Shown here: piece after piece, positions 6,883 through 21,850 of the stretch
How the letters are laid out: every line of letters starts with the position of its first letter
Numbering within the stretch: the stretch's first letter is position 1
Source of the DNA: a bacterium
GTDB lineage: Bacteria > UBA8248 > JACPRG01 > G963555815
NCBI GenBank assembly: GCA_965249615.1
Contig: CBDFMI010000006.1
Location: 444,132 to 508,131, forward strand
DNA: 64,000 bases
Reading direction: 5' to 3'
Notes under the pieces: generated by a model
Told to the model about the DNA's origin: nothing
Database searches by the model: none
What the model saw: the letters and a program-made list of their open reading frames with translations, nothing else
Position numbers and translations under genes: made by a program

Positions 6883-7135
6883 AAGACTAAAATCCCGCCT
6901 GAGACCGCGCTAGGGTTCGCAGACTTTTCCGAGGGTCCTCCGTGAGGGTCCTTCACTCGCCCTTTCGCATCAAACCCCTTCCAATTCAGTCTTGCGTGGG
7001 CCGGGGCTCTCTGGCATCTTGGTATCCGGAGTTCTCGACGACAGGCGCAAATGACGGGCATCTGGGAAGAGATGGGGTCCATTTGTTCCTAAATGGCTTC
7101 AGGGATGGATGAGTAGGGAGGAGTCTGGCGTGGCG

Positions 7136-7525
7136 ATGAAATTTCCTGACGAGCTGAAGTACTCAAAGGAGCACGAGTGGGTCCGTGTGGACGGGAACCA
7201 CACCACGGTGGGGATCACGGAGCACGCCCAGGCGGAGCTCGGTGATGTCGTCCACGTGGAGCTTCCTGAGGTGGGAGCTGAGCTGGAGGCCAGCAATTCC
7301 TTTGGGACGGTGGAGTCTGTCAAAGCGGTTTCCGACCTCTTTGCCCCGGTCTCGGGCAAGGTGACCCAGGTTAACTCCGCTCTTGAAGAGCGGCCCGAGG
7401 TGATCAACTCCGACCCTTATGAAGATGGTTGGATGATTATTATTGAGATGTCCGACCCCGGCGAGCTGGATGGCCTGCTCTCCGCGGATGTGTACGGTAC
7501 CTACGTTGAGGAAGAGGACAGCTAA
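7136..7525 (+). CDS. gcvH: Glycine cleavage system H protein
   Basis: MKFPDELKYSKEHEWVRVDG...SVKAVSDLFAPVSGKV includes the lipoyl-lysine motif ESVKA. Confidence 0.9.
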   Translation: MKFPDELKYSKEHEWVRVDGNHTTVGITEHAQAELGDVVHVELPEVGAELEASNSFGTVESVKAVSDLFAPVSGKVTQVNSALEERPEVINSDPYEDGWMIIIEMSDPGELDGLLSADVYGTYVEEEDS

Positions 7526-7673
7526 GTGCGTTTCGTCCTCCGCACCGAAGTGGATGTGGCAGCCAGCTAGGCGGCCATTGGGGCGCCTGGCCTAGAAAGC
7601 CTGCTTTCCTCCACGGCCCCGCCGACAATACCGCAGGCCTGATTCCTCTTTTTTCAAGGAGTGAAGCGCTCCC

Positions 7674-9794
7674 GTGGACGGTTTACAGTCAGATACTGGG
7701 AGCCGCTGGTCTCTTCTGTGGCGGGATTGTTTGGGGTGGCTATCGGTCTCAGCAGGTCTGGGTGTATTTGAATCGATCCTTCTGGCCTTCCAAAGACCTG
7801 AGATCAATCCCTTCGCAGTGATCGATCTTTTGGATCTCCTGAGCTCCGCCATCGTTTTAAATTCCTTGATGATTCTCCCAGTCTCAGCGGGCCATTTCCT
7901 CCTGTGTTTTCGCCTTTTGGGAGATCGCGACCGTCGGGCGCAGGGTCGAAACACGTTTTTATTCCACCTCGTTGTGTTCCTCGCGTTGGTGTTCACCATT
8001 TTTATTGGCCGAAGACTCATCTTCACGATCCCTGCAGCCATCGTGATCGCCACGGCCCTTTGGTTCGGACTGAAATATACACCCAGGCGGCTGGCCCGTA
8101 TGTTCGGGCTGGGTGTCACCGTTTTCCTGCTGGCCTTTCTTTCCTACGAATTTGCACGGCCATTTTATCCCCTAAAAAATCTCCGCGAGGTCCGGAACGA
8201 AGACAGCGCACTTCCAAATGTGCTCCTGGTGCTTGTGGATACGTTGCGGGCGGATCGGCTCTCCACATACGGCTATTCCAGGGAGACGTCCCCGTTCATT
8301 TCAAAGCTCGCGGGAGAGGGGGCGAAATTTACGAATTTCTATGCGAACGCGAGTTGGACTCCGCCGGCGACGGCAACGATTTTGACCGGCGTATTTCCCT
8401 CAATCCATGGAATAAACGGAACGTCGTTCCAAAAGAAGGCTCCGGTTAAGACGCTTTGTGAGGTTCTGCGCGGACACGGATACAACACGGCTGCGTTTGT
8501 CGCGAACCCATGGATCGGTGAGCGCAGTGGATTACTCGAAGGATGCGACTATCACAGCCCGATGTGGAACCCCTTTAGGCGAAACCACCAGAGACGTGAT
8601 GTCCCAGATCCATCCGCACCCTCTTTCCTGATCCTCGCCAGCGAGCCGATGCTGGAAAACATTTTCGTCTGGAGAAAGTTTGTTTTTTTGCCACGCATTT
8701 TCGTTTGGAATAGATTTGTTTCTTTGTCCGATAGGGTTGTAACCAGCCTTTTCATAATTGACAGGAAGAAGAGCCACCTCCTCCGCGGGGCATTTCGCCT
8801 AATTCAGGAGGTTGATGGAGATGGGAATGATAACCGAGAGGAGATAGAAAATCGCATTCCTCGTGCGGATGAGTTTACACATGGAGTCTTGAACTACGTC
8901 GATTATGTGGCATCGGTGGAAAACCATGATGGCCAAAGGACGAAATTCTTTATCTATCTGCACTATGTAGAACCGCATAGCCCGTATCAGTCACCTGGGC
9001 GCTATGGTCGCCTGTTTGATCCCCACTATCCGGATGAGCGTGTGACTGAGTATCCGGATCCGTCTGAAAATGGGACCACGCCGGAATTGCCGGATGCGCA
9101 GCTGCACAACCTTCAAGCACAATACGACGGAGAGACCCGTTACTTTGATGACAACTTCCAGTTCCTTTTCTCGAATCTAGAGGAAAGGGGGTTCGTGGAT
9201 AACACGTTGATTGTCTTTGTTTCTGACCATGGAGAGGAATTCTACGAGCATCGGGGATTTGGGCATGGGGGAACAGTCTTTGAGGAAGTGCTCAGAGTGC
9301 CTCCCATTTTATGGTACCCCGGCAGCTTGCCCGGCGGACTTGAGGTGGAGGAGCCGGGATCCCAGGTGGATCTAATGCCAACGATTATGGAGGTCCTCGG
9401 TCTTCCGGGGCCCGGGGATTTCCAGGGAAGAAGCTTGTTGCCGCTCATATATGGGGAGGAGAGCGGGGCGGCCATCTATGGAGAAAGCTCACGCGAGCCC
9501 CCTGGCCGCGAGCTTAGTTCTCATCGGTTTTTAGTTCATGGCCGATATAAATTTATCAACCAGGAAAAACCTGAGACAGAGCATGAAAAATTTCTTTTTG
9601 ACCTTCAGTTGGATCCGAACGAGCAAGAAAACATCTACGGCTCTGAAAAAAAGATAGCGGAAGAAATGGAGTTGCTACTGGAAAAATTCGTCACATTGGT
9701 CGAGAATGACCCCCGGTACTCTGAAAACCCAGAGGCCATCGGAGTTGACCCGGAACTGGAGGAGCGTCTGAAGGCTCTCGGATACGTTGAATGA
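7674..9794 (+). CDS. Membrane-anchored sulfatase-family protein (LTA-synthase/phosphoglycerol-transferase-like: N-terminal 5-TM domain plus sulfatase domain)
   Basis: GTG start; N-terminal ~170 aa hydrophobic; sulfatase motif LVLVDTLRADRLSTYGYSRETSPF...SWTPPATATILTG; C-terminus ends ...EERLKALGYVE. Confidence 0.8.
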   Translation: MDGLQSDTGSRWSLLWRDCLGWLSVSAGLGVFESILLAFQRPEINPFAVIDLLDLLSSAIVLNSLMILPVSAGHFLLCFRLLGDRDRRAQGRNTFLFHLVVFLALVFTIFIGRRLIFTIPAAIVIATALWFGLKYTPRRLARMFGLGVTVFLLAFLSYEFARPFYPLKNLREVRNEDSALPNVLLVLVDTLRADRLSTYGYSRETSPFISKLAGEGAKFTNFYANASWTPPATATILTGVFPSIHGINGTSFQKKAPVKTLCEVLRGHGYNTAAFVANPWIGERSGLLEGCDYHSPMWNPFRRNHQRRDVPDPSAPSFLILASEPMLENIFVWRKFVFLPRIFVWNRFVSLSDRVVTSLFIIDRKKSHLLRGAFRLIQEVDGDGNDNREEIENRIPRADEFTHGVLNYVDYVASVENHDGQRTKFFIYLHYVEPHSPYQSPGRYGRLFDPHYPDERVTEYPDPSENGTTPELPDAQLHNLQAQYDGETRYFDDNFQFLFSNLEERGFVDNTLIVFVSDHGEEFYEHRGFGHGGTVFEEVLRVPPILWYPGSLPGGLEVEEPGSQVDLMPTIMEVLGLPGPGDFQGRSLLPLIYGEESGAAIYGESSREPPGRELSSHRFLVHGRYKFINQEKPETEHEKFLFDLQLDPNEQENIYGSEKKIAEEMELLLEKFVTLVENDPRYSENPEAIGVDPELEERLKALGYVE

Positions 9795-9831
9795 AGGTTA
9801 AAGGGCTCGACTCGGACTTGGTGCACACAGC

Positions 9832-12039
9832 ATGAACCGCTGGTCCTTGCTTCGGCGAGATTTTTTGGGATGGCTGGCGGTTTCGGCAGGTCTGGGCGTA
9901 TTTGAATCGGTCTTGCTGGCCTTCCAAAGACCTAAGATCAACCCCTTCGCGGCCATCGATCTGGTCGCTCTTTCGATTTCTGCCGTCCTTTTCAACTCCC
10001 TGATGGTTCTACCCGTTTCACTCGGTCATTTTTTCTTGTATTGGCGGTTTTCTGGAGGCCACGACCATCAGGCGCAGGGCCGAAACGTCTTTTTATTTCA
10101 CCTCGTCGTGTTCCTCGCGGTTGCGTTCATCATTTTTATTGGCCGAAGGCTCATCCTTACGGTTCCTGCAACTATTCTGATGTCCGCGGGCCTTTGGTTC
10201 GGCCTTAGATATCTTTCGACAAGGATTGTTCGGGCATTTTCAGTAGGTGCCGGTATTTTCCTCTTGGCACTTTTTTCGTATGAGTCCCTCCGCTTGCCGC
10301 TCTATATCACAGACCCCGATTATGAACTATGGAAGTCGGAAGTTACGTTATGGGAGGAGGAAGACCCGCGATGTGAGACGCACCTGCGCTTCTCTACTCT
10401 CAACGGCGACCTGGGGTCCCTCGATTCCAGGAACTGTTCCAATTACTACCTGGAGAAGTTCAGGCAGGTAGAAGCGGAGCACCAATCACTGCCGAACGTT
10501 ATTCTGGTTCTTGTCGATACGCTTCGCCCCGATCACCTGTCCACATACGGCTATCATCGAGAGACATCGCCTTTTATTTCGAAGCTGGCGGCGGAGGGGC
10601 TAAAATTTACCAATTTCTATGCGAACGGTGCGTGGACCCCGCCGACGACTTCAACGCTTCTAACCGGCGTTTTTCCCGCAATCCATGGGATATATGAGCC
10701 TGGCGGGCAAAAGAGGGAGACAGTCAAAGTCATTTCTGAGACTCTCCGTGACTACGGCTATAACACAGCCGCCTTTATCGCGAATCCACTGATTACGAAA
10801 AGCACTGGGTTGCTGGACGGATATGATTATTTCTACCGAAAACCCAGGCCGCCGGTGTCGCGGCCGTCGTTGAGGCTCGCGAGCTTCCCCAGTCCGGAGA
10901 ACCTCCTCATATGGGTGAAGTTTCTGTCTCTGTCAGATAAGGTGGTCCAGGCGTTTCGGGGTTTTGATGGGAAGAAAAACGATCTTTTAGTTCAGATATT
11001 TCCCTTCAGCCGTGAATTAGAGCCAGAAAGACAGGAAAGGATACGGGAGGAATTCCGTTTCCCCCCCGCGGAAGTCGACATGGATAAAGAACTCGACTTC
11101 CCCCGGGCGAATGAAATGGCGAACGCGGTGCTGAATTACGTGGATTACGCCTTGGCAGGTCCTGACTTCGACGTTGTGCAAACGAAATTCTTCCTCTTTC
11201 TCCACGACATGGGTCCCCACGATCCTTATAAGTTGCCCACGCCATATGACGTCCTCTTCGACCCTGGGCGCCAGGATAGGCCGGAGGCCGAAGGGGCAGT
11301 CCGGTTTTTGGATGAGTCGCCGCCTGCGTCAGTTCGGGAGAGATTGGCCCATGATTTGCCGCTGTATGACGGAGCAATCCGTTTCTTCGATGATAATTTT
11401 CAGGTGCTCTTTTCGGAACTCAAGGAACGGGGGCTTTTGGACAATACCCTAGTGATCTTGCTGGCAGATCATGGGGAAGAATTCTATGAGCACGGTGAAA
11501 TTGGACATGGGGAGAAGGTCTTTGAGGAAATTGTCAGGATCCCCCTTGTCTTGTGGTATCCAGGGGAATTGCCCTAAGGGGTCGAGGTGAAGGAGTTCGG
11601 GTCGCAGGTGGATATAATACCCACGATCGTGGATGTTCTGGATCTGCCAGTACCAGAGGGGTTGCAGGGAAAGAGCCTCTTGCCCGCGATATCCGGGAGG
11701 GGGCTAGAGAGGGTTGTGTACGGAGAAAACTTGCGTGGTTCGCAGGATTTATCGTCGGGAGATATGTTGCGATTTTTGATCCATGGCCGATATAAACTCA
11801 TCACCATGGGGACACCTAAGACAGTGCGGGAAAAATTGCTCTTTGACCTCCAGTCGGACCCGCATGAGAAAAACAACATCTGCGGGTCTGAGAAAAAGAT
11901 AGCGGAAGAAATGGAATCGCTGCTAGAGGATTTCATCGCATTGGTGAAGAAGGACCCTAGGTATTCTGAAGACCTAGAGGCCGTTGAAGTGGACCCGGAA
12001 CTGCAGAAGCGTCTAAAGGCTCTCGGATACATTGAATGA
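9832..12039 (+). pseudogene. Tandem paralog of the preceding sulfatase-family gene, interrupted by an in-frame TAA at 11575-11577 (N-terminal fragment 9832..11577; C-terminal fragment from GTG 11587..12039)
   Basis: Same frame on both sides of the stop (ELP*GVEVKEFGSQVDIIPTIV aligns to SLPGGLEVEEPGSQVDLMPTIM of paralog 1); N-terminal DNA ~85% identical to paralog 1; the C-terminal fragment ends ...QKRLKALGYIE. Confidence 0.6.
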
Positions 12040-12129
12040 GGGTTAAAAAGTTCGCGTCGATCCTGGTGAAAAAGCAGGCTCACCTTTGGCCCGCGATCGG
12101 GTTTTTAGTTTGAGAGGACGTGGGTAAGA

Positions 12130-13806
12130 ATGTCCATCTCCAAGGTCGCCCTCCTGGGTCTTGACGGTGCCACCTTCTACCTCCTTCGCCCCTGGATGGA
12201 GGATGGAACGCTCCCCAATCTTGCGAACCTCCAAAAACGGGGAGCCTCTGGGGTCCTTGCCTCCACCGTTCCACCGGTGACACCGACGGCCTGGTCCACG
12301 TGCATCACGGGGGTAAACCCGGGAAAGCACGGGATATTCGATTTTCGAGATTCTCCCCTCCGTCATCCCGACCGCCCCCTTCTGAGTCTATCCTCTATCC
12401 GCGCCCCCCGGCTCTGGCAGCTCCTGAATGGGGTCGGGAAAAAGACCATCATCCTCAATGTCCCCATGACTTATCCACCTGAGGCGGTGGACGGGTGCAT
12501 GGTCTCGGGGATGATGACACCGGGGCCGGAGGCGAACTACACTTATCCCCTGGAACTCAAGGCGGAGATCCGTCGGGAGATCGGAGAGTACCTGCCGGAT
12601 ATCGACCTGCCCAAGTACGACGCCGAGCGTTATGAGGATGCCCTGGCATACCTGGACTTGATACGGAAAAGTTTTTCCCAGCGGGAAAAACTTTTCTTCC
12701 ACCTCATGGAGAACCGGCCCTGGGATTTCTTCATGGGGGTTTTCATCTTGCCCGACCGGCTCCAACACGTCTTCTGGAAATATCTGGACCCTGAGGCCGG
12801 GCTCTACGGGACCGAGATCGCCCAGCGGCTCCGAGGCTCGGTCATTGACTGCTATCGTCTGATGGATGATTTTATCGGGCGCCTCGTGGAGCGGCTTTCC
12901 TCTGATACCCTCCTTCTTATCATGTCGGACCACGGTTTTGGACCCACCCAGGCCTGGATCAACGTGAGCACCTGGCTGGAGCAGCAGGGTCTCCTCAAGA
13001 TGAGGGGCCAGATGGCCCTGCAGCGACGCCTCTTGTACCATGCTGTGGGGCTGAACGAGGTGGGCTGGCTAAAACGCCTTATCCCGCAGTCCCTTCAGGC
13101 CTTCGCCCGAAAACGGGTGCGTCAGACCAAGTCCGCCTTTCGGACCGACGTTCAGGTCACCCTGGACTGGGATCGGACCCAGGCCTTTTTTCCCAGCATT
13201 CCGGCTCAAGGGATCTACATCAATGTGGAGCGGGACGGAGCGGGGATCGTCCCCCCGGGGGAGGCCTACGAGGCCCTGCGCGCTCGGCTTCGCGATTCGT
13301 TGCTGGCCCTGAAGGACCCGGCGACAGGGGAACGGATCGTGGACGCGGTGCAGTATCGAGAAGAGGTCTACCACGGGCCCGAAACCCCCTACGCCCCGGA
13401 CCTGTTCTTCGTCGCCCGAAATTACAGCTACCTGGGCCGGCCGATGTTTGGGGGCCGAGAGGTCATCCGGTCGCGCGTCCAGGTGCCAAACGGCTTTCAC
13501 CGCCCCGACGGGATCTTCATGGCTCATGGACCTCACGTGGCCTCGGGCCGGGCGGTCACTGGCTCCCACATCGCTGACATCACCCCCACCATCCTCTATA
13601 GTCTCGGCCTCCCCGTCCCAAAAGAGATGGACGGAAAGCCTTTGTCGGAGATCTTTGAGGCGGACTTTCGGCCCGAGAAGAAGGGCCAAGAGGTGAGCGC
13701 TACTGAAAGTCCACAGCCGCCTGAGAGGACTCCCTCTGAGGCTTATCGTCCCGAGGAGGCCTCCGCCATCGAGAAACGCCTTCGGGCCCTGGGGTATGAG
13801 GACTGA
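12130..13806 (+). CDS. Alkaline-phosphatase-superfamily enzyme (type I phosphodiesterase/nucleotide pyrophosphatase family), paralog 1
   Basis: N-terminus VALLGLDGATFYLLRPWMEDGTLPNLANL...VPPVTPTAWSTCITGVNPGKHGIFDF; ~558 aa; ends ...IEKRLRALGYED. Confidence 0.8.
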   Translation: MSISKVALLGLDGATFYLLRPWMEDGTLPNLANLQKRGASGVLASTVPPVTPTAWSTCITGVNPGKHGIFDFRDSPLRHPDRPLLSLSSIRAPRLWQLLNGVGKKTIILNVPMTYPPEAVDGCMVSGMMTPGPEANYTYPLELKAEIRREIGEYLPDIDLPKYDAERYEDALAYLDLIRKSFSQREKLFFHLMENRPWDFFMGVFILPDRLQHVFWKYLDPEAGLYGTEIAQRLRGSVIDCYRLMDDFIGRLVERLSSDTLLLIMSDHGFGPTQAWINVSTWLEQQGLLKMRGQMALQRRLLYHAVGLNEVGWLKRLIPQSLQAFARKRVRQTKSAFRTDVQVTLDWDRTQAFFPSIPAQGIYINVERDGAGIVPPGEAYEALRARLRDSLLALKDPATGERIVDAVQYREEVYHGPETPYAPDLFFVARNYSYLGRPMFGGREVIRSRVQVPNGFHRPDGIFMAHGPHVASGRAVTGSHIADITPTILYSLGLPVPKEMDGKPLSEIFEADFRPEKKGQEVSATESPQPPERTPSEAYRPEEASAIEKRLRALGYED

Positions 13807-14878
13807 GATGGCAGGTCTGATGACGAAAGTCTCCCATGCCCTTCGAGGGGGTTGGGGGACCCTTTTGAAGGTCGGGGTGAGTGGACTGCTCATCCTTGTC
13901 CTCATTTGGCAGGTGGATTTCGATCGGCTTTGGGTCGTCGTCCGGGATATGTCCCCCGCCTGGCTCCTCCTGGCGCTCTTCTTCAAGTCGGGAGGGGTAT
14001 TCTCGAGCATCCTTCGGTGGCGAGTGCTTCTGAAGGGACAGGACCTCGCCGTCCCTTTAAAAGTCCTCACCTCCTCCTTTCTCGAAGGCCGTTTCTTCGG
14101 CACCTTCACGCCGAGCACCATCGGCCTTGACGCCTATCGAACGTATGACCTGGCCAAGTATTCCGGCCGAACAGCGGCCTCGGTTTCAGTCACATTGGTG
14201 GATAAGGTGATCGGGCTGTTCTCTCTCTCCTTTCTCGTGGCGGTCACCTCATTTGCCGGCGCCCGGTTTGTTGGAGGGCAAGGGGTCTTCTCCCTTCTCC
14301 TCGTCTTCTGTGTCCCCCTCTCCCTGTCCCTGATCTTTCTCCTTTTTCCGGGGCTCCTTGGCCGACTCGTCGACATCAGGAGGTGGAAATCAGGAGGATG
14401 GGCGGAGAAGATGGGCCGTTTCGTCGAAACCGTCACCGTCTATCGCCACCACCGGATCCTCATTGTTCAGGCGGTCGGGCTCGCTATCTTGGTCCACCTT
14501 GGGACCACGCTCATGTATTACGGGACGGCCCTTTCGGTGCAAGCCCCGGTCAGCCCCTTGGACATCCTCTTCGTTGGGCCCCTGATGATCACGGCGACGG
14601 TCATCCCTCTTTCTGTGGCCGGGATCGGGGTCCGTGAGGGGACCTTTGTCTTCTTCCTCACTCGGGTGGGGATCGAGGCGGAGGCCGCCATCCTTCTCGC
14701 CTTTCTCGGGTTCCTCGTAGGCGAGGTCATCAGCCTTTTCGGAGGCTTCATCTTCCTGTTGCGCTCCCACGCGTATCATCGGCGTGAGGGGGGGGTCGCC
14801 GGGGCCGCGGAAAGCGGCCTGGGCAAAGCCGGGGGTGAGGAAGAGGCCGTGGGGACAAAGAAAGAGATTGGCTCTTGA
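13796..14878 (+). CDS. Flippase-like / lysyl-phosphatidylglycerol-synthase-type transmembrane-domain protein (UPF0104)
   Basis: ~8 TM segments; the LLILVLIWQVDFDRLWVVVRDMSP and GTFTPSTIGLDAYRTYDL pattern is typical of this family; overlaps neighbouring genes, suggesting translational coupling; exact start (13796, 13808 or 13820) uncertain. Confidence 0.65.
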   Translation: MRTEMAGLMTKVSHALRGGWGTLLKVGVSGLLILVLIWQVDFDRLWVVVRDMSPAWLLLALFFKSGGVFSSILRWRVLLKGQDLAVPLKVLTSSFLEGRFFGTFTPSTIGLDAYRTYDLAKYSGRTAASVSVTLVDKVIGLFSLSFLVAVTSFAGARFVGGQGVFSLLLVFCVPLSLSLIFLLFPGLLGRLVDIRRWKSGGWAEKMGRFVETVTVYRHHRILIVQAVGLAILVHLGTTLMYYGTALSVQAPVSPLDILFVGPLMITATVIPLSVAGIGVREGTFVFFLTRVGIEAEAAILLAFLGFLVGEVISLFGGFIFLLRSHAYHRREGGVAGAAESGLGKAGGEEEAVGTKKEIGS

Positions 14879-16551
14879 GACGCCTCCTCATCATCGGCGT
14901 CGACGCCGGCACCCTGGACCTCATCGAGCCGTGGGCCCGAGCGGGTGATCTCCCCCATCTGGCCCGTCTCCTCAGGGAGGGGGCCTATGGGCGAGTCCAG
15001 TCGACCCTCCCCCCCTCCACCTATCCCGCCTGGACCTCCTTCATGACCGGTCAGAACCCCGGGCGGCACGGTCTCGTGGACTTCACCTTGAGGGAGGGAG
15101 GGCGCTATGCCGTCAGATTCGCCAGCTCCCGAGACCGGCAAAGTGCTAGTTTGTGGGGGATCCTCAGTGAGGCCGGCCGAAGAGTCGCCGTCCTCGGCAT
15201 GCCCGCCACATACCCCCCTGAAGCCGTCAACGGCTGTATGGTCAGCGGATTCGACTCCCCCCTAGCATGGCGTCTCAACGAGAGCTTTTTTCATCCTCGA
15301 GGGCTCCACCGGGAGGTCATACAGGAGGCGGGACTCTTCCCGCTCTCGGCCTGCCGGGAGGATCGGATCGGAAAGGGCTGGCACGAGCGGGCCTATCGGG
15401 AGATCCTGAAATCACTGGAGCAAGAAACTCGCGTGGCGGAGTACCTCCTGGGCCGGGAAGCGTGGGATTGCTTCTGCGTCGTCTTCGGCCAGACAGATAC
15501 GGTGTGCCATCATTTCTGGAAATTCTTCGACCCATCCTCTCCCCGATATGACTCAGAGGGGGCGAGGCGCTTTGGAGACGCCATCCGTCAAGTCTATCGG
15601 CGTGTGGATTCAGCCATCGGTTCCCTGCTGCAAAAGGCGCCCGATGACGTCACGGTCCTCATCGTCTCGGACCACGGAGCGGGGGGGGCAGGAAACCAGA
15701 TTATTCATTTAAACGCTTGGCTGGCCGGGGAGGGCCATCTGACCTTTCGAAAGGGGGGGGTGGGCTACCGTGCCCTTTCAGCCCTGAAGACGCTGGGCCT
15801 CGGCTATCTCCCGAGGAGGGTTCAAGAACAGGTCTTTCGTGCGGGCGGGGGCAGGCTGGCAAATGGGCTAGAATCCCGCTTGCGTTTCGGCCAGATCGAA
15901 TGGGCGAAGACCCGGGTCTATTCCGAGGAGCTGGGTTATTTCCCCTCTCTTTGGATCAACCTTCGGGGGAGGGAGCCTCAGGGGACGGTGGAGCCCGGCA
16001 GGGAATATGAGGATCTGAGGGACGAGATCATCAGCCGCTTAGAGGTTCTCAGACACCCCGTCACGGGGAGGCGCCTCGTTGAGCGGGCCGTTCGGCGAGA
16101 GGAGGTTTATTGGGGCCCCTTTGTGGACCGGGTTCCTGACATTCTCCTGGAGCTCGCCCTCGACGAGGGCTATAGCTACTCCTGCCTTCGAAGTCCAGCC
16201 CGCTCCCAGGGCCCCTTCGTTCGCTCTCTCCAGAGAGCGGAGGGGGCCAGGGGCCAGGGGATGAACGGCTCACACCGACCAGAGGGGTTTTTCGTTCTCT
16301 CGGGTGAGGGGGTGCGCCCGGGGAAGTGCCGGTTCACCCCCCATCTCATGGACTTTGCCCCGACGCTTCTCGCCCTTTTGGGGATCACCCCTTCGGTGGG
16401 GATGGACGGTCGGGTCTTGGAAGAAGTCCTGAGCGTCCCTGAGCCTCATCCCGTCCCCGTCGCCGTGGCAGGGGAAGAGACGCCTTCGGCGGCCCAGGGG
16501 TGGGAAGGCACGGCCTTCCGGCGGCTTCGGGACCTTGGATACCTGGAATGA
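14875..16551 (+). CDS. Alkaline-phosphatase-superfamily enzyme (type I phosphodiesterase family), paralog 2
   Basis: TTG start overlapping upstream stop (TTGA); IIGVDAGTLDLIEPW...LPPSTYPAWTSFMTGQNPGRHGLVDF; ends ...FRRLRDLGYLE. Confidence 0.8.
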   Translation: MRRLLIIGVDAGTLDLIEPWARAGDLPHLARLLREGAYGRVQSTLPPSTYPAWTSFMTGQNPGRHGLVDFTLREGGRYAVRFASSRDRQSASLWGILSEAGRRVAVLGMPATYPPEAVNGCMVSGFDSPLAWRLNESFFHPRGLHREVIQEAGLFPLSACREDRIGKGWHERAYREILKSLEQETRVAEYLLGREAWDCFCVVFGQTDTVCHHFWKFFDPSSPRYDSEGARRFGDAIRQVYRRVDSAIGSLLQKAPDDVTVLIVSDHGAGGAGNQIIHLNAWLAGEGHLTFRKGGVGYRALSALKTLGLGYLPRRVQEQVFRAGGGRLANGLESRLRFGQIEWAKTRVYSEELGYFPSLWINLRGREPQGTVEPGREYEDLRDEIISRLEVLRHPVTGRRLVERAVRREEVYWGPFVDRVPDILLELALDEGYSYSCLRSPARSQGPFVRSLQRAEGARGQGMNGSHRPEGFFVLSGEGVRPGKCRFTPHLMDFAPTLLALLGITPSVGMDGRVLEEVLSVPEPHPVPVAVAGEETPSAAQGWEGTAFRRLRDLGYLE

Positions 16552-17768
16552 GTGGAGAGAAAGGATCTCGTCGGAAGGTGGCCATGGTGGCCCCCTGTCC
16601 CTTCCCAAGCGTTCAGGGCTCCCAGATCCTGATCCAGGATCTGGCCGGGGGCCTCGAGAGGAGGGGACACGAGGTCCACGTGGTCACTTACCCCTTCGGG
16701 GGCTCCCGTCCGACCGCTTCCTTGCGGATCCACCGGGCTGCCTGTCCCCTTCGTTATGCCGTGGACCACCCGGGCCCTCATCTCTATAAACCTTTTCTGG
16801 ACCTCTTCGTCTTGAGAGAGCTCCTGCGGGTCATCCGCGGGGAGGGGATTGAGCTCCTCCACGCCCACAGCTATGAGGGGTTGCTCATCTCCCTGCTGGC
16901 CGGAAGGTGGACGGGCATTCCCGTCCTCTATCACAGCCACACCCTCCTCGAGGAGGAGCTCCCCACCTATTTTCGGGCCTCGTGGAAGCGCGCCCTGGCG
17001 CATTGGGTGGGCCGACTGCTGGACCGACAGCTTCCGCGTCGGTCAGACCATTGCATTGCCCTTTGTCAGAGAACCCTTGGGGCCTTTCGGGCCTTGGGGG
17101 TGGCGGCGGATCGCTCTTCCTGCATTCGTCCTCTGATCTTTTCCCCCGCCGATAAAACTCCTTCCAGGGTGGATGTAGAGCGCCATCCCTTCATCCTCTA
17201 TACGGGAAACCTCCACCCGTATCAGGATCTCAATCTCCTGATGGAGGGGTTCGCCGAGGTGGCCTCGAGGCTCTCAGAGGTCCGCCTGGTTATCGCCACC
17301 CATTCTGACCCTTCCCATTACGCCGCCCTGGCAAGGGCCCTGGGGCTGTCGGAGCGGGTCTCCTTTCGCGTGAAACCTCCCTTGGATGAAGAGTGGGGTT
17401 TGATGCGGAGGGCCGACCTCCTCGTCTGTCCGCGCCTTCGGTGCTCCGGCTACCCCATCAAGCTTTTGAACTACCTGGCGGCTGGAAGGCCCATCCTCGT
17501 CAGTGAGGGCTCGGCCGAGGGGATTCGCCATGGCGAGAACGGCTACGTTGTCTCTCGGCCTGAACCGAAAACCCTGGCGGAGGGGGCTATTCAAATCCTT
17601 CAGTCCCCCGCCTTGGCAAAACGGTTGGGCGAAGGGGCGGCCCGGACCTACCGGGAGGAGGTGGCGGAAGAGCGCTCCTTGTCGGCCATCGAGGCCATCT
17701 ACACGCAGTGTCTGGGGGAGGAGGGGAACGCGGCCCTCCTCGCCCACCCGAGGGAAATGGCCTCATGA
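16548..17768 (+). CDS. Glycosyltransferase family 4 (GT-B fold)
   Basis: ATG overlaps the upstream stop (ATGA); VAMVAPCPFPSVQGSQILIQDLAGGLERRGHEVHVV N-terminal GT4 motif; C-terminal GTLHPYQDL...E...E-type block. Confidence 0.8.
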   Translation: MSGEKGSRRKVAMVAPCPFPSVQGSQILIQDLAGGLERRGHEVHVVTYPFGGSRPTASLRIHRAACPLRYAVDHPGPHLYKPFLDLFVLRELLRVIRGEGIELLHAHSYEGLLISLLAGRWTGIPVLYHSHTLLEEELPTYFRASWKRALAHWVGRLLDRQLPRRSDHCIALCQRTLGAFRALGVAADRSSCIRPLIFSPADKTPSRVDVERHPFILYTGNLHPYQDLNLLMEGFAEVASRLSEVRLVIATHSDPSHYAALARALGLSERVSFRVKPPLDEEWGLMRRADLLVCPRLRCSGYPIKLLNYLAAGRPILVSEGSAEGIRHGENGYVVSRPEPKTLAEGAIQILQSPALAKRLGEGAARTYREEVAEERSLSAIEAIYTQCLGEEGNAALLAHPREMAS

Positions 17769-19168
17769 CCAAGGTCTTGATCCTGGGCCTCGATTGCGCA
17801 GACCCTCGCCTGGTCTTTGACCGCTGGCGACAAGAACTTCCGAACCTCAGACAGCTCATGGAGGCCGGCGTCTGGGGCCCTCTTCAGAGCACCATCCCCC
17901 CCATCACGGTCCCAGCCTGGGCCTGCATGATGACGGGGCGGGACCCTGGAGAGCTAGGGATCTATGGGTTCCGAAACCGGACCTCCTATCAGTACGGGGC
18001 CCTGGGGATCACCAGCTCTCTCTCGGTCCAAGAGGAGACCCTGTGGGACATCCTGGGCCGCACCGGCCGGGAGGTGGTGGTCGTCGGGGTCCCTCCTTCA
18101 TATCCTGTGAAGCCCGTCCGGGGCAGCCTCATCTCCTGCTTTCTCACCCCGAACGCCGAGGTCCCTTTCACGCATCCCCCTGAGCTCAAGGAGGAGGTTC
18201 AGCGTCTTGCCGGCGGGTACCTGTTTGACGTGGAGGGATTCCGGACCGACGACAAGCCCCGGCTCCTCCAACAGATCCACGAGATGACAGAAAAACGCTT
18301 TAGGGTCCTGAAACACCTACTCACCCGAAAGCCGTGGGACTTTTTTATGTCGATGGAGATCGGGGTGGACCGCATGCATCACGGCTTTTGGAAATTTCAC
18401 GATGAGGGCCACATCAAGCACCCCCCGCAAAACCCCTATCAGCACGTCATTCTGGACTATTACCGCTATGTGGACAAGGAGATCGGTGAGCTGGTGGAGT
18501 CCGTCGACGAGGACACGGTCATCATCGTCCTCTCTGATCACGGGGTGAAGAGGATGGAGGGGGGGCTGTGCGTCAACGAATGGCTCATGAAGCAGAAATA
18601 TCTGAGCCTCTCCGCCTACCCCAAGGAGCTCACCTCCCTCAGCAAGCTCGATGTGAACTGGGACCGGACCATGGTCTGGGGAGAAGGGGGGTACTATGGC
18701 CGGATCTATCTCAACGTAAAGGGCCGGGAACCCCAGGGGGTCATCGCCCCAAATGACGTGGAGAAGATCCGGGCAGAGCTGAAACAGGGCATGGAAGAGC
18801 TTTCCGACGAATCAGGGCGCCCCCTCGGGACCCGCGTATTCTATCCCGAGGAGGTCTATCAGGAGGTCCGGAGGATCCCGCCCGATCTCATCGTCTATTT
18901 TGGAGACCTGGACTGGCGCTCTGTCGGGACCGTGGGCCATGGCTCGATCCACACCCGAGAGAATGACACGGGCCCTGACGACGCCAACCACGACACCCAC
19001 GGGATATTCATCATGGCGAAGAAGGCGGACCTCAAAGGGGGCGGGACCGGTCTGGGAACCCGCCTCGACGGTCTCAGCCTCTACGACGTGACCCCCACCG
19101 TCCTGGACCTCCTTGGCCTTCCCATCCCACCCTCGATGCACGGGCGAGTGATTTCTCCTAGAGCCTGA
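17765..19168 (+). CDS. Alkaline-phosphatase-superfamily enzyme (type I phosphodiesterase family), paralog 3
   Basis: ATGA overlap with the glycosyltransferase; MTKVLILGLDCADPRLVFDRW...IPPITVPAWACMMTGRDPGELGIYGF; lacks the LGY tail. Confidence 0.8.
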   Translation: MTKVLILGLDCADPRLVFDRWRQELPNLRQLMEAGVWGPLQSTIPPITVPAWACMMTGRDPGELGIYGFRNRTSYQYGALGITSSLSVQEETLWDILGRTGREVVVVGVPPSYPVKPVRGSLISCFLTPNAEVPFTHPPELKEEVQRLAGGYLFDVEGFRTDDKPRLLQQIHEMTEKRFRVLKHLLTRKPWDFFMSMEIGVDRMHHGFWKFHDEGHIKHPPQNPYQHVILDYYRYVDKEIGELVESVDEDTVIIVLSDHGVKRMEGGLCVNEWLMKQKYLSLSAYPKELTSLSKLDVNWDRTMVWGEGGYYGRIYLNVKGREPQGVIAPNDVEKIRAELKQGMEELSDESGRPLGTRVFYPEEVYQEVRRIPPDLIVYFGDLDWRSVGTVGHGSIHTRENDTGPDDANHDTHGIFIMAKKADLKGGGTGLGTRLDGLSLYDVTPTVLDLLGLPIPPSMHGRVISPRA

Positions 19169-20042: not shown

Positions 20043-20675
20043 CTAGTCGATATATCCCAAGCCCTTCAGTTTGGCCTGGATGGTCTGCTTCTCTTCCTCG
20101 GAATAGACGTAATCGGCGGGCTCGATGTAACCGAATTCTTCCAGCCGAGAGAGAATATGCGCGACAGATTCCTTAACCGACTCTTTGTCCGTCTCGACGG
20201 TTATCTCGGGGTTGAGGGGCTCTTCATAGGGGTCTGAGACCCCCGTAAAATTCTTAATCTCACCCTTAAAAGCTTTCGCGTACATCCCTTTCACGTCCCG
20301 TTCTGCGCAGACCTCAACAGGGCATTTGACGTAGAGCTCCACGAAGCGCCCCACCTCGGCCCTTACGGCGTCTCGGATGGCCCGGTAGGGGGCGATGACC
20401 GCCGCCATGTTGGGAACCCCGTTTCGGGTCAAGAGGTGACAGAGGTATCCCAGGCGAATGATGTGCTTATCGCGGTCCTCTTTGGAGAAGCCGAGGTCGG
20501 CGCTGAGATTGCGGCGCACTTCGTCGCCGTCGAAGACCTCGACGTTCGGAAAACCGCGCTCGTGAAGTTTCTCTCCGAGAAGAACGGCAATCGTGCTTTT
20601 CCCTGAGCAGGGAAGGCCTGTGAACCAGACCGTGAACCCTCTGGGTTTATCTTTGATCACTTTCTCTCTCCTCAA
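20043..20675 (-). CDS. cysC: Adenylylsulfate (APS) kinase with a ~25-aa C-terminal extension
   Basis: P-loop GLPCSGKSTIA, DGDxxR motif FDGDEVRRNL; the extension ends ...QAKLKGLGYID; overlaps sat by ATGA. Confidence 0.9.
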   Translation of the reverse strand: MRREKVIKDKPRGFTVWFTGLPCSGKSTIAVLLGEKLHERGFPNVEVFDGDEVRRNLSADLGFSKEDRDKHIIRLGYLCHLLTRNGVPNMAAVIAPYRAIRDAVRAEVGRFVELYVKCPVEVCAERDVKGMYAKAFKGEIKNFTGVSDPYEEPLNPEITVETDKESVKESVAHILSRLEEFGYIEPADYVYSEEEKQTIQAKLKGLGYID

Positions 20676-21850
20676 GAGCCGCCGTCAGAACCCTGTCCTG
20701 CCCGCTCGGCGTAAGCCTGGTGCAAGACCCGGGCGACTTCAGGCCGCATCACCTCCGGGGGTGGAAGCTCCCCGCGGTCTAAAATTTCCCTCACACGAGT
20801 TCCGCTCAGGAAGACGCGCTCTTTCTCCCCGTGGGGGCAGGTCTTGGCCGTTATCATGGCCTCACACCCACGGCAGTAGAAGGCGTGGTCGAAGAAGAGA
20901 GGGGTGATCCCGATCTCCGAGGCCTCGAACTCGTGGAAGATATGGTGGGCGTCATAGGAGCCGTAGTAAGACCCGACGCCGGCGTGGTCCCGGCCCACGA
21001 TGAAATGGGTACAGCCGTAGTTCTTTCGCACGATAGCGTGGAAGATGGCCTCCTTCGGCCCGGCGTAGCGCATGGCCGCCGGAAACACGGAGAGGACCGT
21101 CCGGTTCTTGGGAAAATAGCTCTCCAGGATCACCCTGTAGGAGGCCATCCGGAGGTCCGCCGCCAGGTCGCCCTCCTTGGTGGCCCCGACCAGGGGATGA
21201 AGTAGGAGGCCGTCCACACATTCTAGGGCGCACTTCTGAATGTACTCGTGGGCGCGATGAATGGGGTTTCGGGTCTGGAAGGCCACGACCGTCTTCCACC
21301 CCTTGAGCTGAAAGAGAAGGCGGGTCTCCTTGGGTTCCAGATGGAAGTTGGACCACTCGGTGGCGGCCCCTCTTCGAAGGAGTTTAATAGGCCCCCCGAT
21401 GAGGACAGGGCCTCGCTCGAAGACCTGGCGAACCCCGGGGTGGTCCGAATCTTTTGTCCCGAAGACCTGCTCCACCTCCCTCTCCTTGTCCGGCTTCCAC
21501 TGAGAGGTGACCCGAAGAAGCCCGGTCGTTTCCTTCCCGACCGTGAGGGTAATCTCGTCACCTATGGAAAGGGTCTGGGCCGTCTTCTCATCCACGCCGA
21601 GGACGATGGGAAGCGTCCAGGGAAGGCCCAAGGCGAGGCGCTGGTCTTCCACCACAGCCTGGTAGTCCTCCTCCTCCATGAATCCCCTTAGGGGGCTGTA
21701 GGCCCCCGTCGCGATGAGTTCGAGATCGGAATGCTCCTGGGCCGACAGGGCGATTTTCGGCAGCCCTTGGGCTTTTTTGTCCAAGGCGGGCCGATCCTCC
21801 TCCCGGACCATCCGGTCGACGAGGACCCCGCCGTGCGGTTTGATAGGCAC
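20672..21850 (-). CDS. sat: Sulfate adenylyltransferase (ATP sulfurylase)
   Basis: 392 aa; QTRNPIHRAHE and GRDHAGVG motifs; start preceded by GAGGAGG RBS. Confidence 0.9.
   Translation of the reverse strand: MPIKPHGGVLVDRMVREEDRPALDKKAQGLPKIALSAQEHSDLELIATGAYSPLRGFMEEEDYQAVVEDQRLALGLPWTLPIVLGVDEKTAQTLSIGDEITLTVGKETTGLLRVTSQWKPDKEREVEQVFGTKDSDHPGVRQVFERGPVLIGGPIKLLRRGAATEWSNFHLEPKETRLLFQLKGWKTVVAFQTRNPIHRAHEYIQKCALECVDGLLLHPLVGATKEGDLAADLRMASYRVILESYFPKNRTVLSVFPAAMRYAGPKEAIFHAIVRKNYGCTHFIVGRDHAGVGSYYGSYDAHHIFHEFEASEIGITPLFFDHAFYCRGCEAMITAKTCPHGEKERVFLSGTRVREILDRGELPPPEVMRPEVARVLHQAYAERAGQGSDGGS

Follow-up and report, generated by a model that had tools for sequence, protein, structure and literature searches.

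A 64,000-nucleotide (nt) stretch of contig CBDFMI010000006.1 from the assembly of an uncultured bacterium (GCA_965249615.1), hereafter the window, contains two open reading frames (ORFs) arranged head to tail on the plus strand, between gcvH (7109-7525) and a homolog of NPP-type phosphodiesterases (12130-13806). Each matches the Pfam Sulfatase domain, which bears out the tandem pair of paralogs described in an initial annotation made from the letters of the window. The first gene, P1, is intact; the second, P2, is split by a single TAA in the context GAA TTG CCC TAA GGG GTC GAG, with an identical frame on both sides, exactly as annotated (Table 1). Both copies end in ...RLKALGY(V/I)E. Comparison with related genomes points to an old pair that has been lost in various ways among relatives, and the P2 gene of this genome is most likely a very young pseudogene, a case of ordinary gene decay.

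Relatives were collected by protein search and by cluster and contig look-ups, which returned very few close ones. The comparison of copy number at their loci, proposed in the initial annotation, reveals one fused gene, one mosaic gene, or none; four layouts occur across five related lineages, and an ancestor with two genes can account for all of them. A sister strain, ~97% identical to the window, is represented by two assemblies from different samples (L001 and L007) and has a single fused gene, P1-like as far as 7800 and P2-like from 9942 onward, with exactly 2134 bp missing; the crossover lies at 7800-7808 in P1, equivalent to 9934-9942 in P2, within a patch in which the paralogs are 90% identical. 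The genomes L003, L002, L008, and L009, ~90% identical to the window, share a single mosaic gene of 698 amino acids (aa), in which P2-like sequence (the first ~90 nt) is followed by P1-like sequence from ~7820 to 9726 and again by P2-like sequence from ~11975. Upstream of this gene lies the spacer between P1 and P2 (spacer B), and before it a P1-type tail survives as a relic of 33 nt, which abuts the spacer between gcvH and P1 (spacer A) at an AGG microhomology. In L010, ~94% identical, no gene is present, and spacer A (to ~7659) runs at a GAGG microhomology into the last ~60 nt of P2 (from ~11977), a tail relic followed by the spacer downstream of P2 (spacer C).

Each layout holds a piece explicable solely by a two-gene ancestor, and the tandem pair is thus ancestral to the clade; the relics show that the two-gene state predates lineages that are 90-97% identical. 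At least three independent reductions of the pair have taken place in this clade. The bodies of P1 and P2 have orthologs in different relatives, at the divergence of the flanking genes, and in a full-gene codon alignment of P1 with its L003 ortholog the ratio of non-synonymous to synonymous divergence (dN/dS) is 0.27, which places P1 under purifying selection. The frameshifting indels of the fused gene are private to each assembly (a 1-nt deletion at ~11061 in L001; three 1-nt insertions in L007), so the gene is probably intact in the sister strain. The L001 frameshift, which falls in a C-run, was considered as a second independent inactivation and rejected, since it is absent from L007 and is probably an assembly error. 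A further candidate, a circle or array of identical copies in L002 (Logan ERR14231557 contig, 2163 bp), was suggested by identical 29-nt ends; these mimic a circle of 2134 bp, equal to the P1-P2 period, but are explained by the tail relic upstream of the single gene in L003-type genomes, a direct repeat of the real tail. P0071, a 50-aa cluster "representative", was discarded as a homolog because it is unrelated in sequence.

The codon at 11575-11577 reads TAA in the window, CAA (Gln) in L001 and L007, GGC (Gly) in P1, and Ala in the L003-type genes, which makes it a variable, tolerant position. Relative to the full-length paralog and ortholog, the stop at codon 582 is premature, and P1 and the L003-type genes read through it. 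Since both sister-strain assemblies have CAA, the TAA represents a single C-to-T transition within a frame that is conserved apart from it, which sharpens the earlier alternative of an incipient pseudogene or a sequencing error, itself supported here. L001 and L007 have 88 differences from the window in common. The TAA is probably a real nonsense mutation and a very young one. Reassignment of the codon was rejected, since TAA terminates several other genes of the window, and recoding to selenocysteine or pyrrolysine is not applicable to TAA. P0048 (581 aa, P2 cluster) was set aside as independent support for the stop because its sequence is that of the window's own ORF and it derives from the same contig.

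The P2 body before the stop differs from L001 by a synonymous divergence (dS) of ~0.035, with dN/dS of 0.2-0.5, and the 459 nt after it (11578-12036) by a dS of 0.19. The divergent block starts close to the TAA, and the whole locus diverges patchily between the window and the sister strain; the raised dS past the TAA thus looks like that of an imported or exchanged allele, not like decay, and suggests that the 3' end of P2 may be a divergent allele imported by recombination. The 3' end of P2 (11545-12144) is also the most diverged stretch relative to L001, with 92-95% identity, compared with ~99% for gcvH and the FBPase gene.

Several points weigh against a genuine and decaying P2. The dN/dS of the 459 nt downstream of the TAA is 0.215, which gives no sign of relaxed selection, and the stop would thus be extremely recent, or not real. 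The status of the codon was judged from the assembly consensus, which leaves a consensus error at 11575 as a rival, and a single sister lineage with a P2 body is at hand for comparison. An AAGGGG motif precedes a GTG codon at 11587, 9 nt past the stop, which would in principle allow the tail to be re-initiated. In addition, the redundancy of P1 and P2 is deduced from the pattern of losses, and large insertions distinguish the copies, whose substrates might have differed.

Were the TAA an error of the consensus or of sequencing, the codon would in truth be CAA and P2 an intact protein of 735 aa. This would fit the single-base difference from the CAA of the sister strain, the selected appearance of the segment past the stop, and the source of the sequence, an assembly of an uncultured organism, related assemblies of which (L001 and L007) hold private indel errors. 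However, the change is a substitution, unlike the homopolymer indels typical of the errors in L001 and L007; no other gene is broken over the ~20 kb comparable with three relatives; and the TAA lies in a stretch dense in nucleotide differences, where 5-8% of positions differ from the sister strain and a real variant is unsurprising. The genes flanking the pair are equal in length in the window and in L003, L008, and L010, and the window assembly is thus not noisy. An error at this codon is therefore regarded as unlikely.

The part of the protein lost through the stop is equivalent to P1 residues ~554-706. In a model of P1 predicted with AlphaFold2 (AF2; mean predicted local distance difference test score, pLDDT, 75; catalytic core >90), the truncation removes the core strand E556-558, the helix H564-574, the four-stranded C-terminal subdomain, and the terminal helices, and the near-invariant residues D566, T570, G585, and D647 fall in the lost part. 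The conserved residues D189, T229, D518, H519, and H531 (P1 numbering) are all encoded upstream of the TAA. The fragment downstream had been annotated as retaining the conserved catalytic C-terminal part and an LGY tail; the tail is there, but the catalytic residues, namely the metal-binding Asp, the Thr nucleophile, and the DHG motif, are not. On the basis of the model, the truncated P2 product is predicted to be non-functional.

A functional split gene, in which translation restarts at GTG 11587 and the 581-aa and 150-aa pieces assemble, would draw on the 9-nt distance between the stop and the GTG, the Shine-Dalgarno-like AAGGGG 5 nt before it, and the intact and conserved downstream ORF. 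However, AAGGGG and the GTG are also present in the uninterrupted sister allele, so they were not selected for a restart; the interruption lies within the core fold of the AF2 model; a leaderless C-terminal fragment could not join the catalytic domain if that domain should lie outside the membrane; and the split is seen in no relative. We consider such an arrangement very improbable, and a recent nonsense mutation in P2 is the reading adopted below.

The age of the pair itself follows from the divergence between its members. BLASTP aligns P1 and P2 at 51% protein identity with 89 gap positions, and a codon alignment gives 65% nucleotide and 58% amino-acid identity, a proportion of synonymous differences (pS) of 0.65, which is saturated, and a proportion of non-synonymous differences (pN) of 0.26. 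By region, pS is 0.29-0.55 in the first ~125 codons, 0.65-1.0 in the body, and 0.13-0.56 in the last ~85 codons, where it falls to 0.35 in a 25-codon window and then to 0.13 in the final 11 codons; head and tail windows are mostly at or below 0.47. The longest exact word common to the two genes is 23 nt. The ~85% identity reported initially for the N-terminal transmembrane domains is reached in a 61-nt patch alone (7755-7815 versus 9889-9949, offset 2134; 90%), the second interval of which had been placed one base off, at 9890-9950; it does not hold for the whole transmembrane region (7698-8160), which is 72% identical, or for the genes at large. With like ends and diverged bodies, the pair is an old duplicate, the ends of which have been partly homogenised or are more often exchanged, and the confinement of the similarity to the 5' patch and the 3' tail suggests local gene conversion.

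The initial proposal, in which a laterally acquired module was recently duplicated in tandem, could draw on the low GC content of the pair (overall and at third codon positions, GC3), its tandem orientation, the 90% patch, and the similar 3' tail, but high identity with low synonymous divergence does not extend along the whole unit, synonymous sites are saturated outside the ends, the two bodies have separate orthologs in different relatives, and the tail relics place the two-gene state before the split of lineages 90-97% identical, which leaves the proposal with next to no probability.

Within the body of P2, 10 of the 12 adjacent positions at 11025-11036 differ from L001 (3787-3798), and the L001 allele is identical to P1 at 5 of the positions. 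These differences suggest that gene conversion acted between the paralogs over a very short tract.

The observations can be arranged into one scheme. Two old tandem paralogs, each a membrane-anchored enzyme of the alkaline-phosphatase superfamily with a threonine nucleophile, appear redundant or dispensable, to judge from the pattern of losses, and the lineages have resolved the pair differently. In the sister strain, homologous recombination in the 5' patch would have fused the head of P1 to the body of P2. In the L003-type genomes, P1 sequence would have taken the place of the body in the P2 slot, after which the P1 slot would have been lost through a deletion at a microhomology; this order of events, in which conversion of the P2 body by P1 precedes the first-slot deletion, is a reconstruction, and unequal crossovers would serve as well. 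In L010, both genes would have been deleted at a microhomology. In the genome of the window, P1 remains intact, whereas P2 would have acquired the CAA-to-TAA change, its product losing the last core strand and the C-terminal subdomain.

Measured against what is familiar from the dynamics of tandem paralogs, i.e., unequal recombination, gene conversion, and reciprocal loss, the pattern is a textbook one with nothing unusual; fusion by crossover in a similar patch, homogenised ends, microhomology deletions that leave relics, and the retention of different copies in different lineages are all shared with it. Gene decay of this kind is ordinary and will neither surprise a specialist nor command much general interest. 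Its value here is that of a clean natural example, documented in an uncultured lineage, in which a redundant tandem pair is resolved by fusion, by body replacement and deletion, by full deletion, and by nonsense mutation, with all junctions mapped.

The base composition of the pair, described initially as AT-richer than the flanks, differs clearly from the mean of the stretch. The GC content is 0.518 in P1 and 0.519 in P2, compared with 0.605 +/- 0.018 (minimum 0.554) in all other 2.1-kb windows of the 64 kb, which corresponds to z = -4.8; GC3 is 0.58-0.60 compared with ~0.70-0.82 in the neighbouring genes, while GC content at the first and second codon positions is just slightly lower. The single ortholog in L003 is likewise AT-rich (0.514 compared with 0.588 elsewhere in that locus). 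Since the orthologs in relatives are equally AT-rich, the AT-richness predates this genome. The low GC content of the pair fits lateral acquisition, which must then predate this clade; neither a donor lineage nor a truly empty site was found among the relatives, the gene-less L010 still holding a tail relic.

The label "sulfatase" describes the fold of P1 and P2 rather than their chemistry. Both match Pfam Sulfatase (PF00884; P1, 1.4e-43; P2 fragment, 6.9e-43) as well as SGSH_C, and the fold assignment of the initial annotation therefore stands. The C/S-x-P-x-R motif that carries the formylglycine residue is absent from both: in a HMMER alignment to 7oz8 and 5g2v, its columns read T-P-P-A-T in P1 and T-P-P-T-T in P2. 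An alignment of 46 sequences has Thr at the nucleophile position in 31 of the 31 closer homologs, almost all with DHGE, and 13 distant homologs with CxPSR form a separate group, mostly with DNG (DHG occurs despite the Cys type in P0033 and P0035, and P0039 also has DHG). Across 33 aligned family members, T229 never varies, and conservation reaches at least 90% at D189, D518, H519, and H531. The metal-ligand motif is DHGEEF, not DNG, in P1, P2, and the Thr-type homologs, and a Thr nucleophile with an Asp/His metal site is thus present at the level of sequence, from which the catalysis is predicted. The catalytic domain is preceded by a multi-pass N-terminal membrane domain, seen both in hydropathy and in the AF2 model (five helices, residues 9-164).

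The closest structural neighbours are the S1 sulfatases and phosphonate monoester hydrolases, which are the best Foldseek matches of the AF2 model (E ~1e-24, target template-modelling score ~0.7), S1-type proteins also being the best matches of a PDB sequence search (E ~1e-30). P1 and P2 share PF00884 and an SGSH_C-type subdomain with choline sulfatase (6g5z/7oz8), BT4656 (5g2v), and the phosphonate monoester hydrolase 2vqr, and keep the N-terminal metal-binding Asp (VDTLR). They differ from the S1 sulfatases in T-P-P-A-T, with neither the Cys/Ser nor the Arg, in DHG instead of DNG, and in the addition of ~5 membrane helices and a conserved LGY tail. The phosphoethanolamine transferases EptA, MCR-1, and CptA and the LtaS enzymes resemble P1 and P2 in combining a multi-helix membrane domain with PF00884, in the position of the Thr nucleophile, and in the Asp-His metal motif. 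In MCR-1, Thr285 is the demonstrated nucleophile, and enzymes of this kind are placed in the fold's sulfatase group (PMC5031297). However, the catalytic domain of P1 and P2 is nearer to the S1 sulfatases in sequence, fold, and C-terminal subdomain, the EptA-type N-terminal Pfam domain is absent, and the NCBIfam models of EptA, CptA, LtaS, and YejM score 27-36 bits over partial stretches, against cut-offs of 404-970.

P1 and P2 are thus analogous to phosphoethanolamine transferases in architecture and nucleophile chemistry while standing outside that family. They belong to an uncharacterised branch of the sulfatase fold with a Thr nucleophile and carry a membrane anchor of ~5 helices; judged by their motifs, they are not true sulfatases. 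Their activity would be the transfer or hydrolysis of a phospho- or sulfo-ester at the membrane. Metabolic reconstructions of this uncultured lineage should leave the Pfam "Sulfatase" genes of this locus out of their sulfatase counts.

Table 1. Features of the P1-P2 locus and its surroundings (window coordinates)
Feature	Position	Strand	Remarks
Spacer A, gcvH-P1	7526..7673	+	AAGGAG ribosome-binding-like site, 7657-7662
Left deletion junctions within spacer A	~7637-7650 (L003-type genomes), ~7659 (L010)		alignments with L003 and L010
P1, intact, 706 aa	7674..9794	+	~5 N-terminal hydrophobic helices, then sulfatase-fold domain
P1 motifs	Thr229 codon 8358-8360 (inside WTPP 8355-8366); DHGEEF 9225-9242; LGY tail 9777-9785		
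5' homology patch, P1	7755..7815	+	90% identical to P2 9889-9949
Imperfect internal 36-nt tandem duplication, P1	8661..8732	+	69% identity; encodes FVWRKFVFLPR / IFVWNRFVSLS
Spacer B, P1-P2	9795..9831	+	kept in L003-type genomes, downstream of the 33-nt P1-tail relic
P2 whole, TAA-interrupted, 735 codons	9832..12039	+	
P2 5' fragment, 581-codon ORF up to premature TAA	9832..11577	+	includes transmembrane region
P2 5' fragment motifs	VDTLR 10513-10527; WTPP with Thr codon 10633-10644; DHGEEF 11467-11484		
P2-specific insertion, ~48 codons (LPLYITDPDYELWKSEV...NCSNYY)	~10300-10445		between membrane helices and catalytic domain
Premature stop TAA	11575..11577	+	codon 582 of 735
P2 3' fragment, same frame, 153 codons	11578..12039	+	150 codons if counted from GTG 11587, with AAGGGG upstream
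3' homology block	11929..12039	+	79-88% identical to P1 end 9684-9794
Terminator-like GC hairpin, then TTTAGTTT	12088..12103	+	downstream of P2; consensus match only
NPP-type (PF01663) paralogs	12130-13806, 14875-16551, 17708-19168		start directly at the catalytic strand
[KR]L[KR]xLGYx[ED] tails	9768-9794, 12013-12039, 13780-13806, 16525-16551	+	
[KR]L[KR]xLGYx[ED] tail	20043-20069	-	

Beyond the interrupted frame, the two genes differ in their insertions. The 36-nt duplication of P1, which contains the AT-rich run pointed out in the initial annotation (starting at 8698), sits in a low-confidence insertion of the model (by pLDDT; residues ~298-385, ~90 residues); it is also found in the P0002/L003-type orthologs, and P2 has a single copy, visible as a 12-residue alignment gap. 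Conversely, the ~48-codon insertion of P2 is present neither in P1 nor in the L003-type genes. The 3' fragment of P2 encodes the SGSH_C-like C-terminal subdomain, with its LGY tail at 12022-12030, and spacer C around the downstream hairpin is kept in all relatives. Tandem Repeats Finder reported no repeats over 7600-12100, and an Rfam scan of the window gave no matches.

The pair stands at the 5' edge of a gene cluster of the envelope-modification type, which continues downstream with genes for three homologs of NPP-type phosphodiesterases, a flippase-like LPG_synthase_TM protein, and a GT4 glycosyltransferase. On the minus strand, past the cluster, APS kinase and ATP sulfurylase are encoded (20043-21850), the enzymes of 3'-phosphoadenosine 5'-phosphosulfate (PAPS) synthesis. 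Among the distant homologs of P1 and P2, P0016 is fused to sulfotransferase domains, and another homolog is fused to TPR repeats. The PAPS genes and the sulfotransferase fusion may link the cluster to the sulfation of an envelope component.

The LGY tail is found on five proteins of three unrelated folds, i.e., P1, P2, two of the NPP-type phosphodiesterase homologs, and the APS kinase, and no other ORF of the window ends in [KR]L[KR]xLGYx[ED]. The tails are conserved in L003 and L010; among the distant homologs, the tail occurs in 14 of the 31 Thr-type proteins and in 0 of the 13 Cys-type sulfatases. A literature search for the LGY motif yielded irrelevant matches and no description of the tail. 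It is tempting, though rather doubtful, to regard the tail as an undescribed docking or sorting tag that joins the enzymes into one envelope-modification, possibly sulfation, machine, in which P1 and P2 would be interchangeable tagged modules, the ends kept alike and the bodies swapped or dropped. The shared tail and the link to the PAPS-synthesis genes provide a modest lead on the function of the Thr-type branch.

No obvious signal peptide is seen in the three NPP-type paralogs; should they be cytoplasmic, the LGY-tailed enzymes may work at the inner face of the membrane, which bears on the topology of P1 and P2. As a rough taxonomic hint, the neighbouring FBP aldolase/phosphatase has its closest named homologs in metagenome-assembled genomes of Nitrospinota, at 77-79% identity.

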